Shown piece after piece: positions 3,238 through 7,662 of a stretch of 29,737 nucleotides of DNA. Origin of the DNA: a virus (taxonomy: Duplodnaviria; Heunggongvirae; Uroviricota; Caudoviricetes); the IMG/VR virus record IMGVR_UViG_2541047877_000009. One strand, written 5' to 3'. The notes beneath the pieces are model-generated. The model had not been told where the DNA came from and did not search any database. It worked only from the letters and a program-made list of their open reading frames with translations. The position numbers were made by a program, and so were the translations under genes. Numbering within the stretch: position 1 is the stretch's first letter; each line of letters begins with the position of its first letter.

Positions 3238-3509
3238 GTATTCGTATCGAAATTGGCGAACGTTATGTCGTTACCAGTGACAGCTTTCAGTTTATTCTCC
3301 ACGAGAAAAAGAGAGCGGAAAGCGGTAAAAACGCCGGTCAGGAATGGCTGGCGGTGGTTGGTTATTACCCGAAATTAAGCCAGCTCGTTTCCGGCCTGAT
3401 GCATCACGATATTCTGACCGGAAGCGCAAAGTCTTTTGCTGATTTAAACGCGCAGGTTGAGCAACTCAGCAAGCGTTGCTCAGAGGCTTTTGGCTCATAT
3501 GGCCGTTAA
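3234..3509 (+). CDS. Hypothetical early protein (P2 orf83 position)
   Basis: 91-aa ORF with GGAGAA SD; overlaps the start of A. Confidence 0.5.
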   Translation: MSIRIEIGERYVVTSDSFQFILHEKKRAESGKNAGQEWLAVVGYYPKLSQLVSGLMHHDILTGSAKSFADLNAQVEQLSKRCSEAFGSYGR

Positions 3510-5784
3510 AGCCTCCGGGCGTTTTGTCCCTCCGTCAGCATTTGCCGCAGGCACCGGTAAGATGTTTACCGGTGCTTATGCATGGAACGCGCCACGCGAG
3601 GCTGTCGGGCGCGAAAGACCTCTTACACGTGATGAGATGCGTCAGGTGCAAGGTGTTTTATCCACGATTAACCGCCTGCCTTACTTTTTGCGCTCGCTGT
3701 TTACTTCACGCTATGACTACATCAGGCGCAATAAAAGCCCGGTGCACGGGTTTTATTTCCTCACATCCACTTTTCAGCGTCGTTTATGGCCGCGCATTGA
3801 GCGTGTGAATCAGCGCCATGAAATGAACACCGACGCGTCGATGCTGTTTCTGGCTGAGCGTGACCACTATGCGCGCCTGCCGGGAATGAATGACAAGGAG
3901 CTGAAAAAGTTTGCCGCCCGTATCTCATCGCAGCTTTTCATGATGTATGAGGAACTCAGCGATGCCTGGGTGGATGCGCATGGAGAAAAAGAATCGCTGT
4001 TTACGGATGAGGCGCAGGCTCACCTCTATGGTTATATTGCTGGCGCTGCACGTGCTTTCAATATTTCCCCTCTCTACTGGAAAAAATACCGTAAAGGGCA
4101 GATGACCACGAGGCAGGCATATTCTGCCATTGCCCGTCTGTTTAACGATGAGTGGTGGACTCATCAGCTTAAAGGCCAGCGTATGCGCTGGCATGAGGCG
4201 TTACTGATTGCTGTCGGGGAGGTCAATAAAGACCGTTCTCCTTATGCCAGTAAACATGCCATTCGTGATGTACGTGCACGCCGCCAGGCAAATCTGGAAT
4301 TTCTTAAATCGTGTGACCTTGAAAACAGGGAAACAGGCGAGCGCATCGACCTTATCAGTAAGGTGATGGGCAGTATTTCTAATCCTGAAATTCGCCGGAT
4401 GGAGCTGATGAACACCATTGCCGGTATTGAGCGTTACGCCGCCGCAGAGGGTGATGTGGGGATGTTTATCACGCTGACCGCGCCGTCAAAGTATCACCCG
4501 ACACGTCAGGTCAGAAAAGGCGAAAGTAAAACCGTCCAGCTAAATCACGGCTGGAACGATGAGGCATTTAATCCAAAGGATGCGCAGCGTTATCTCTGCC
4601 GTATCTGGAGCCTGATGCGCACGGCATTCAAGGATAATGATTTACAGGCCTACGGTTTGCGTGTCGTCGAGCCACACCACGACGGAACGCCGCACTGGCA
4701 TATGATGCTTTTTTGTAATCCACGCCAGCGTAACCAGATTATTGAAATCATGCGTCGCTACGCGCTCAAAGAGGATGGAGACGAAAGAGGAGCCGCGCGA
4801 AACCGTTTTCAGGCAAAACATCTTAACCGGGGCGGTGCTGCGGGGTATATCGCGAAATACATCTCAAAAAACATCGATGGCTATGCACTGGATGGTCAGC
4901 TCGATAACGATACCGGCAGGCCGCTGAAAGATACTGCTGCGGCTGTTACCGCATGGGCGTCAACGTGGCGCATTCCGCAATTTAAAACGGTTGGTCTGCC
5001 GACAATGGGGGCTTACCGTGAACTACGCAAATTGCCTCGCGGCGTCAGCATTGCTGATGAGTTTGACGAGCGCGTCGAGGCTGCACGCGCCGCTGCAGAC
5101 AGTGGTGATTTTGCGCTGTATATCAGCGCGCAGGGTGGGGCAAATGTTCCGCGCGATTGTCAGACTGTCAGGGTCGCCCGTAGCCCGTCGGATGACGTTA
5201 ACGAGTACGAGGAAGAGGTCGAGAGAGTGGTCGGCATTTACGCGCCGCATCTCGGCGCGCGTCATATTCATATCACCAGAACGACGGACTGGCGCATTGT
5301 GCCGAAAGTTCCGGTCGTTGAGCCTTTGACTTTAAAAAGCGGCATCGCCGCGCCTCGGAGTCCTGTCAATAACTGTGGAAAGCTCACCGGTGGTGATACT
5401 TCGTTACCGGCTCCCACACCTCCTGAACACGCCGCAGCAGTGCTAAATCTGGTTGATGACGGTGTTATCGAATGGAATGACCCGGAGGTCGTGAGGACGC
5501 TCAGGGGTGCATTAAAACACGGCCTGAAAACACCAAATCGTCAGCAAAGAAACGGAAGTCCGTTAAAACCACATGAAATAGCACCGTCGGCCAGACTGAC
5601 CCGGTCGGAACGATTGCAAATTACCCGTATCCGCGTTGACCTTGCTCAGAACGGTATCAGGCCGCAGCGATGGGAGCTTGAGGCGCTGGCGCGTGGCGCG
5701 ACCGTAAATTATGACGGGAAAAAATTCACGTATCCGGTCGCTGATGAGTGGCCGGGATTCTCAACAGTAATGGCGCGGACATAA
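3499..5784 (+). CDS. A: Replication initiation endonuclease gpA (rolling-circle HUH nickase). ORF track start 3457; MAVKASGRF at 3499 preferred.
   Basis: About 761-aa ORF; HUH-type motif HWHMMLF and catalytic tyrosine motif YIAKYISK; N-terminus MAVKASGRFVPPSAF as I recall for P2 A. Confidence 0.9.
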   Translation: MAVKASGRFVPPSAFAAGTGKMFTGAYAWNAPREAVGRERPLTRDEMRQVQGVLSTINRLPYFLRSLFTSRYDYIRRNKSPVHGFYFLTSTFQRRLWPRIERVNQRHEMNTDASMLFLAERDHYARLPGMNDKELKKFAARISSQLFMMYEELSDAWVDAHGEKESLFTDEAQAHLYGYIAGAARAFNISPLYWKKYRKGQMTTRQAYSAIARLFNDEWWTHQLKGQRMRWHEALLIAVGEVNKDRSPYASKHAIRDVRARRQANLEFLKSCDLENRETGERIDLISKVMGSISNPEIRRMELMNTIAGIERYAAAEGDVGMFITLTAPSKYHPTRQVRKGESKTVQLNHGWNDEAFNPKDAQRYLCRIWSLMRTAFKDNDLQAYGLRVVEPHHDGTPHWHMMLFCNPRQRNQIIEIMRRYALKEDGDERGAARNRFQAKHLNRGGAAGYIAKYISKNIDGYALDGQLDNDTGRPLKDTAAAVTAWASTWRIPQFKTVGLPTMGAYRELRKLPRGVSIADEFDERVEAARAAADSGDFALYISAQGGANVPRDCQTVRVARSPSDDVNEYEEEVERVVGIYAPHLGARHIHITRTTDWRIVPKVPVVEPLTLKSGIAAPRSPVNNCGKLTGGDTSLPAPTPPEHAAAVLNLVDDGVIEWNDPEVVRTLRGALKHGLKTPNRQQRNGSPLKPHEIAPSARLTRSERLQITRIRVDLAQNGIRPQRWELEALARGATVNYDGKKFTYPVADEWPGFSTVMART

Positions 5785-6236
5785 TGACAAAGATTCACAA
5801 AGTAAAGCTGCACGCAAAATATTTCGACCTTGTGCTGGAAGGAAAGAAACGCGCAGAGTTTCGGAAAAATGACCGTAATTATGAGCGCGGAGACACGTTG
5901 ATTTTGCATGAATGGGGGCAGGGTGTGTATACGGGGCGAAAGGTTGAAGCCCGGATAACAGATGTTACTGACCTGTCAGACTGGCTGGAAGATTATGTCT
6001 TGCTAAGTATTGAGCTGCTTAATACAGGCGCATATGAGATTGTGAACTGGAAAGAACTTAGTGAGCGTGGTCTGGTATTCAGAATTAATCATGAAATTAT
6101 GCATCAGCTCGGCCTTGCTGTTATGTATGAACCAGAGACGGGGATGTCTGGCGGGGCAATGGTTGCCACGGATGGAGCATGGAACTATTCAGATGAACAG
6201 ATTGAGCGTGCAAAGCAAAACGGGTGGCTTGGATAA
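5784..6236 (+). CDS. DUF3850/ASCH-like (PUA-fold) domain protein with an unassigned roughly 70-aa C-terminal extension
   Basis: ATG overlaps the A stop (TAATG). N-terminus MTKIHKVKLHAKYFDLVLEGKKRAEFRKNDRNYERGDTLILHEW fits the DUF3850/ASCH pattern from recall; first gene of the cargo region. Confidence 0.55.
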   Translation: MTKIHKVKLHAKYFDLVLEGKKRAEFRKNDRNYERGDTLILHEWGQGVYTGRKVEARITDVTDLSDWLEDYVLLSIELLNTGAYEIVNWKELSERGLVFRINHEIMHQLGLAVMYEPETGMSGGAMVATDGAWNYSDEQIERAKQNGWLG

Positions 6237-6439
6237 TGCACAGAATACCAGGCGAGATACCGCAACATAACACTAAAAATATCAAGCTGATGGCTATTGT
6301 TCACCGTCTACAGCAGATTATGGTCAACGAAAATCTGACGCCCGACGAGTTGGTCGGGTGTGCCGAAATAGTCCGGGATAATTACGTGCGGTTTAACGAT
6401 ATAGAACAGTCTAAAATTGCACTGCTACCACGTTGTTGA
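6236..6439 (+). CDS. Small hypothetical protein (cargo region)
   Basis: About 67-aa ORF starting MHRIPGE... immediately after the preceding stop; no recognisable motif; could be spurious. Confidence 0.3.
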   Translation: MHRIPGEIPQHNTKNIKLMAIVHRLQQIMVNENLTPDELVGCAEIVRDNYVRFNDIEQSKIALLPRC

Positions 6440-6765
6440 TAGAAAACCCCAGCAGTACTGAAACATGCTTCCAGTGCTGCTGGAGGGAACAACGAACAGC
6501 GAGAGGTGGTAGTTGGCCATCATTTGAGTATCAGCATATGATTGGATTTATAACGGTTGGAAAGATTAATGTTGGTGAACTAATAAATTACAAATATTCA
6601 CAAGAAGATCTTATGTTACTAACATGAGTTTATGTGTAATATAGCTGTACATACCAATATCCGCTGTACCTTTGTTTTTATTTGGTTTGTCAGGTGTCAC
6701 AGGTATGGTTGGCGTATGAGAATGGTTTATTTAAATTAAATATTGATTAAGGTTGAAAGAATGTC

Positions 6766-7662
6766 ATGAATAAAAGTAAAGCAATCTCAAGAATAGAGAG
6801 AGTGTTGAGAAGATTAAAGGATGGGAGTTTCACTGATAGTGATATTGATGTTCTTTTTGTTACGGCCCGTGAGTTGCCGAGTGCGCCCAAGTGTATTTTT
6901 GAAATTGGGAGTTTTGTTGCCCATAATCATCGGAGAGATCAAGGCGAGATAAAGGATATCATGCTGAGGAATCATTTGTTATTAAGTTTAAAATTTGGAC
7001 GCGATAAGCATGCTGTTAAACCAGAGTTAAATGAATACCCGAAATACTTACCTACATTAATCAGACTGCAATTAAGAATGTTCAGTGATGAGTTTTTAAA
7101 GGAGAAGTTAAACTTAAAGGGGGGGCAGGTAATTACAGCGAGGAAGAAGCTTAATAACAAGAAATCGTATATTGTTAATGATGGTGTTTGTAAGTTAACA
7201 CCAGAAATTGGTTCCAATGAAGGGCGAATGATTAATGAAGCTTTGTCGTTACTCAATTGTTCTGACGCAATTAAGTTCGACTCTTTATTTAATGAGCTGA
7301 AAATATTGCTTCGGAAGGAGATTTCAGGGGTGGACTTGATGCCGCTTGATAATAACAGGAGAGCAATAGCAGGCATCTTACTGTGTTTGTTGAATAATAT
7401 TGATTTTTCTCTGATGCCTGAAGTCAAAGCAAAAACAGTCCTTAGTCTTAATGATGCAGATAAATCTGCAAATGTTTATGGTCAATATTATATAACACAT
7501 GAAAAAGAGCCATTCACCGACGTGGCTATCATGAGCCCAGTGTTTCAGTCGGGGTATGATGTTAGTGACCTTTTTGATGAGCATGTGACAAATGAAAATA
7601 TCGTAAATGGGGATGTCGAATTTAGTTTTGATTTGGGGAAAATAGTTGTGTCGAAATCATAG
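6766..7662 (+). CDS. AT-rich hypothetical protein, 298 aa, in the P2 accessory hotspot between A and cos; candidate accessory or anti-phage gene of unknown mechanism
   Basis: Long uninterrupted ORF in sequence that is visibly AT-rich by eye compared with flanking phage genes (not computed); preceded by a 330-bp AT-rich non-coding stretch; occupies the locus where P2 carries tin/old; no Walker A, HUH or other motif found by eye. Confidence 0.75.
   Translation: MNKSKAISRIERVLRRLKDGSFTDSDIDVLFVTARELPSAPKCIFEIGSFVAHNHRRDQGEIKDIMLRNHLLLSLKFGRDKHAVKPELNEYPKYLPTLIRLQLRMFSDEFLKEKLNLKGGQVITARKKLNNKKSYIVNDGVCKLTPEIGSNEGRMINEALSLLNCSDAIKFDSLFNELKILLRKEISGVDLMPLDNNRRAIAGILLCLLNNIDFSLMPEVKAKTVLSLNDADKSANVYGQYYITHEKEPFTDVAIMSPVFQSGYDVSDLFDEHVTNENIVNGDVEFSFDLGKIVVSKS

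Follow-up and report, generated by a model that had tools for sequence, protein, structure and literature searches.

Domains of the ASCH/PUA clan bind nucleic acids and nucleosides; the nucleoside case is YqfB, an N4-acetylcytidine amidohydrolase with a Lys21-Thr24-Glu74 catalytic triad (PMC9599836), and free m6-dAMP, which triggers a defence system, has also been described as a ligand within the clan (bioRxiv 10.64898/2026.01.15.699771). In prophages, the DUF3850 domain occurs in ParB-CTPase-DUF3850 fusion proteins that are paired with ParA, and a nucleic-acid-related or anti-defence role has been proposed for them (PNAS 2025, PMC12704722). Phage P2 encodes a DUF3850 protein of its own, the 109-aa Orf91 (NP_046796.1, P2p41), from a gene that overlaps the stop codon of the replication gene A. 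The literature on P2 Orf91, DUF3850, DUF7415 and ASCH anti-defence yielded no study of activity or function; the name "orf91" in a paper on phage L refers to an unrelated gene.

The stretch of DNA analysed here (the window, 29,737 nucleotides of a Caudoviricetes virus) carries a gene on the same strand and in the same position. Its P2-type rolling-circle replication initiator gpA lies on the plus strand at 3499..5784, as judged from the reading frame and from relatives annotated "replication endonuclease / nicking at origin of replication" with a length of 2286 nt; the longest ORF begins at a TTG at 3457, and the RefSeq-style 2286-nt gene at 3499. The next gene, here called orf91-long (5784..6236, plus strand, 150 aa), starts on the gpA stop codon, as the preliminary description had said: the sequence at 5782-5786 reads TAATG, with the gpA TAA at 5782-5784 and the orf91-long ATG at 5784-5786. 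A second TAATG overlap joins the orf91-long stop codon (TAA, 6234-6236) to the ATG, at 6236, of a small 67-aa ORF (6236..6439, plus strand). Both ORFs are real genes, and the proteins match PHROG families over their full length (phrog_1812, E=4e-81, for the 150-aa protein; phrog_11386, E=3e-39, for the 67-aa protein). Between these genes and the cargo downstream lies an AT-rich spacer (6440..6765, assigned to no strand; GC 31-40%) in which a promoter scan found weak promoter-like matches only, and a 64-aa ORF at 6433..6627 was considered as a gene and found to be without support. The cargo gene, encoding 298 aa (6766..7662, plus strand), is outside the feature and was examined for linkage to it.

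Homology to P2 DNA continues through gpA up to window position ~6004, and P2 Orf91 is 93% identical to the 150-aa protein over residues 1-74, that is, the DUF3850 domain, making the window gene an orthologue that directly follows gpA on the same strand. The homology of the P2 protein ends at about residue 76, and the remainder is an unrelated 33-aa tail beside the inverted tin-old cassette; P2 thus has neither DUF7415 nor the small ORF. Judged from these alignments, the 150-aa gene represents P2 orf91 in its intact, long form, and the P2 copy has been cut off at the domain boundary. The long form is also the commoner of the two in E. coli, with 345 genomes vs 17 carrying the P2 type. An apparent natural split of the gene in phage WPhi ("orf91 + gp92") comes down to seven single-base insertions in the 2003 record, which on DNA alignment are most likely sequencing errors.

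Two domains make up the 150-aa protein. The assignment of its N-terminal half to DUF3850/ASCH, proposed from the sequence beforehand, is borne out by Pfam: DUF3850 (PF12961; residues 4-76, 5793..6011, plus strand) matches over all 77 profile positions (1-77) with 65.2 bits vs a gathering score of 22.9 (E=6.4e-18), and ASCH (PF04266) with 44 bits vs 21.2 (E=3.8e-11). The ASCH octapeptide GxKxxExR can be read in the translation as G20-K21-K22-R23-A24-E25-F26-R27; K22, E25 and R27 are 98-99% conserved in 174 family members less than 70% identical to the query, and every family-invariant residue of the DUF3850 half is kept. The fold of this half is a minimal ASCH/PUA-like beta-barrel. The C-terminal region, earlier described as having no recognisable motif, is in fact Pfam DUF7415 (PF24187; 54 bits vs a gathering score of 27, E=1.9e-14, residues 86-128), which with a C-terminal helix extends over residues 86-150 (6039..6233, plus strand). 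In DUF7415, a small domain of the alpha/beta type, the signature R-I-N-x-E-x-x-H ... G-x-S ... D-G-x-W-x-Y is invariant, and the family-invariant residues are all present here (W89, G96, R100, I101, N102, E104, H107, G110, G120, S122, D130, G131, W133 and Y135); the sole departure is Q108, where 90% of family members have Pro. The expected domain boundary near residue 80 is supported by the Pfam ranges, by a dip in AF2 pLDDT at residues 81-90 with a well-folded half on either side, and by the end of P2 homology at residue ~74. The AF2 model has a pTM of 0.56 and leaves the mutual orientation of the two domains undefined.

About 4,700 representative clusters match the 150-aa protein. A Foldseek search against viral predicted structures retrieved solely DUF3850 and DUF7415 proteins, none with a functional label, and DUF7415, without a structural relative in the PDB, appears to be a structural orphan. 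Scanned against NCBIfam and PADLOC, the three proteins of 150, 67 and 298 aa yielded no usable match; in PADLOC-DB v2 none of the three had a significant match, the sole match being to PDC-M11B at E=0.025.

The gene is far from universal in P2-like phages, a distribution that would have marked it as backbone. In E. coli, 1,682 genomes have a P2-like gpA 3' end, 378-424 a DUF3850 N-terminal domain after gpA, and 345 of 5,426 the long form with the small ORF; orf91-long follows gpA in ~20% of E. coli P2-like prophages. The DUF3850-DUF7415 gene follows gpA in 1 of 61 species-representative P2-like loci, a conclusion unchanged when the tblastn scan of these loci was repeated with domain HMMs to guard against missed divergent homologues. 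Because ~80% of E. coli P2-like prophages lack orf91-long, it is not a core replication factor. Where the gene is present, it is constrained: orthologues 53-58% identical, from P2-like prophages of Enterobacter and Salmonella, retain the order gpA, fusion, small ORF, and dN/dS of the 150-aa gene against orthologues is ~0.10 (dS>1). We conclude that orf91-long belongs neither to the backbone nor to the cargo and is an early accessory module that a P2-like phage may or may not carry. Hundreds of E. coli prophages with this two-domain early phage protein are on record already (RefSeq lists "DUF3850 domain-containing protein" after "replication endonuclease" in hundreds of genomes), which makes the finding largely ordinary and unlikely to surprise a P2 specialist; the analysis does not establish its function.

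On balance, orf91-long is probably a dispensable accessory gene of the P2 early operon in which DUF3850 and DUF7415 have a joint role in phage DNA or nucleotide metabolism, or in host interference with it. The gene would lie at the distal end of the early (replication) operon and be translated by coupling to gpA; this coupling, together with the spacing of 0-15 nt in all relatives, points to early transcription from Pe. Of the two placements offered in the preliminary description, early operon or cargo, the former is favoured by the coupling, by the tight spacing kept in 55%-identity orthologues and by the intermediate GC content of orf91-long and the small ORF, between the values of gpA and of the cargo. 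From the gene arrangement, the protein would be made in lytic development and not in the lysogen. The DUF3850 cleft, with invariant K22, E25, R27, D30, R31 and E43, may bind nucleic acid or a nucleotide that is free and possibly modified, and the target of the two domains' joint action would be phage DNA or nucleotide metabolism, or the host's interference with it.

Other arrangements of the same domains bear on this reading. A reverse-order fusion, DUF7415-DUF3850 (P0049; locus L093), lies directly after gpA in a 186-like prophage, and in Vibrio phage yong1 a DUF7415-X protein occupies the same position. We searched this 157-aa yong1 protein for a hidden DUF3850 and found none, its 68-aa neighbour does not match the small ORF, and the apparent DUF7415 match that would have made P0144 a third N-C fusion proved spurious on inspection of the sequence. 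Elsewhere, a RecE/RecT early operon encodes DUF7415 as a fusion to a dATP/dGTP pyrophosphohydrolase, T4-like phages have it between nrdD and nrdG, and in T5-like phages it is found immediately upstream of the gene for the origin-binding protein; both domains also occur, in lambdoid and other phages, in early accessory regions untied to replication initiators. The two fusion orders arose independently, each directly after gpA in P2-family phages, which points to a joint early function, and we infer that this function involves binding of nucleic acid or nucleotide. The repeated placement after gpA could instead reflect a permissive site at the edge of a recombination hotspot, and not a link to replication. 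Both domains are very widespread in phages, and the fusions, together with the apparent structural orphan status of DUF7415 and its link to genes of nucleotide metabolism, offer a concrete, testable start for the function of both families.

It is possible, though rather unlikely, that the early-made DUF3850-DUF7415 protein serves in counter-defence and neutralises an immune system of the host or of a prophage; it might sequester or hydrolyse a danger signal consisting of modified nucleotide or nucleic acid, or shield replication intermediates. Several observations are consistent with such a role: the patchy, lineage-specific presence of the gene at the edge of a defence hotspot, its placement in the early operon, the abundance of both small, shuffled domains in early accessory regions of unrelated virulent and temperate phages, the fusion to an NTP pyrophosphohydrolase, the ability of PUA/ASCH-clan domains to bind free m6-dAMP, and the anti-defence roles that the authors of the ParB-CTPase survey propose for phage DUF3850 fusions. 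However, the protein has no match to a known anti-defence family and no phenotype in the literature, DefenseFinder-based surveys of P2 list only Anti_RM and Anti_CRISPR (28 of 1,511 P2 elements), and the idea is drawn wholly from context. We consider it distinctly unlikely that DUF3850-DUF7415 represents a phage factor of a new type, active in counter-defence or on the nucleotide pool, in which the minimal ASCH pocket would capture or hydrolyse a free modified nucleotide, or a modified nucleic acid, of the sort that serves immune sensors with PUA domains as a danger signal, DUF7415 would add a second ligand or partner site, and the position after the replication initiator would have the protein made once replication starts.

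The small ORF has a history of its own. Its product (phrog_11386) belongs to the family of gp37 of Salmonella phage PSP3, which is 78% identical over residues 1-58 and likewise encoded in the gpA-Q region of a P2-family phage; in PSP3-type prophages the DUF3850 gene is absent before the gp37 homologue. Against orthologues (dS>1), the core of the small ORF has a dN/dS of 0.03-0.04, a sign of strong purifying selection. At the 3' end of the ORF (~6386-6439), homology breaks between prophages with different cargos. That the 150-aa and 67-aa genes form an obligate two-gene module, such as a toxin-antitoxin-like or enzyme-regulator pair, would be in keeping with this extreme conservation, with the stop-start overlap, and with the joint presence of the genes in 345 E. 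coli genomes and in 55%-identity orthologues. Each gene nevertheless occurs without the other. The small ORF is found without orf91 in PSP3, SEN1 and 186-like prophages, where it follows a DinI-like gene, as well as in SW9, in loci L005, L009, L024, L025 and L084-L088, and in Scandinavium, Buttiauxella and Rahnella loci; orf91 is found without the small ORF in P2, and a small-ORF homologue is absent from the reverse-order fusion locus L093 and from yong1. Since it also occurs without orf91, the small ORF is not an obligate partner, and such a module is improbable: of the "small partner ORF" proposed earlier, the conserved ORF directly after the gene stands and the partnership does not. The 67-aa gene is a separate, more widely distributed and strongly conserved gene of the gpA-Q region, and its 3' end forms the left boundary of the swappable cargo.

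P2 gpA belongs to the repressed early operon, and orf91-long, oriented as gpA and translationally coupled to it, is very unlikely to be a lysogenic-conversion (exclusion) gene active in the prophage, like P2 old and tin. The gene does lie within the gpA-Q region, a defence hotspot in Rousset et al., in whose table it was cloned together with old-tin. Yet in P2 the opposite strand encodes old and tin, which have their own promoter, and PADLOC has no match for orf91-long.

The pair and the cargo gene beside it are independent of each other. Downstream of the pair, at least six unrelated cargos occur, and the 298-aa gene is present in 25 genomes, at the same junction and at least 99% identical, as one near-clonal haplotype that fits a single acquisition. 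The suggestion that orf91-long and the small ORF belong to a defence or cargo system with the 298-aa gene is scarcely credible, for although that gene lies directly behind the pair in 25 of 25 genomes that carry it, on the same strand and with no strong terminator between, it accompanies only 25 of the 345 pairs in E. coli genomes, GC drops from 45-48% to 31-39% across the 326-nt AT-rich spacer, and none of the genes has a significant PADLOC match. For the window, the practical gain is one of bookkeeping: the two genes should not be counted in any system that the 298-aa gene may represent, and the swappable defence cargo has its left edge at the 3' end of the small ORF (~6386-6439) and not at the gpA stop codon.

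Beyond P2 and PSP3, the described proteins nearest to orf91-long share its DUF3850 half. PDB 3iuw, an 80-aa structural-genomics protein of Enterococcus faecalis labelled "activating signal cointegrator", is a DUF3850 protein of a single domain, without DUF7415. Profile alignment to E. coli YqfB places K22 on Lys21 and R27 on Arg26, but the YqfB nucleophile Thr24 falls on Glu25 of the 150-aa protein, which gives the canonical ASCH GxKxxExR; the DUF3850 half is also ~25 residues shorter than YqfB, ending at about residue 78, and the Glu74 region is unalignable. We rejected a YqfB-type amidohydrolase on this ground, as Glu25 occupies the nucleophile position of the triad. The phage ParB-CTPase-DUF3850 fusions have the same DUF3850 module in prophage-encoded proteins, whereas the 150-aa protein lacks a ParB-CTPase domain, its gene has no parA beside it, and the fusion partner of the module is DUF7415.

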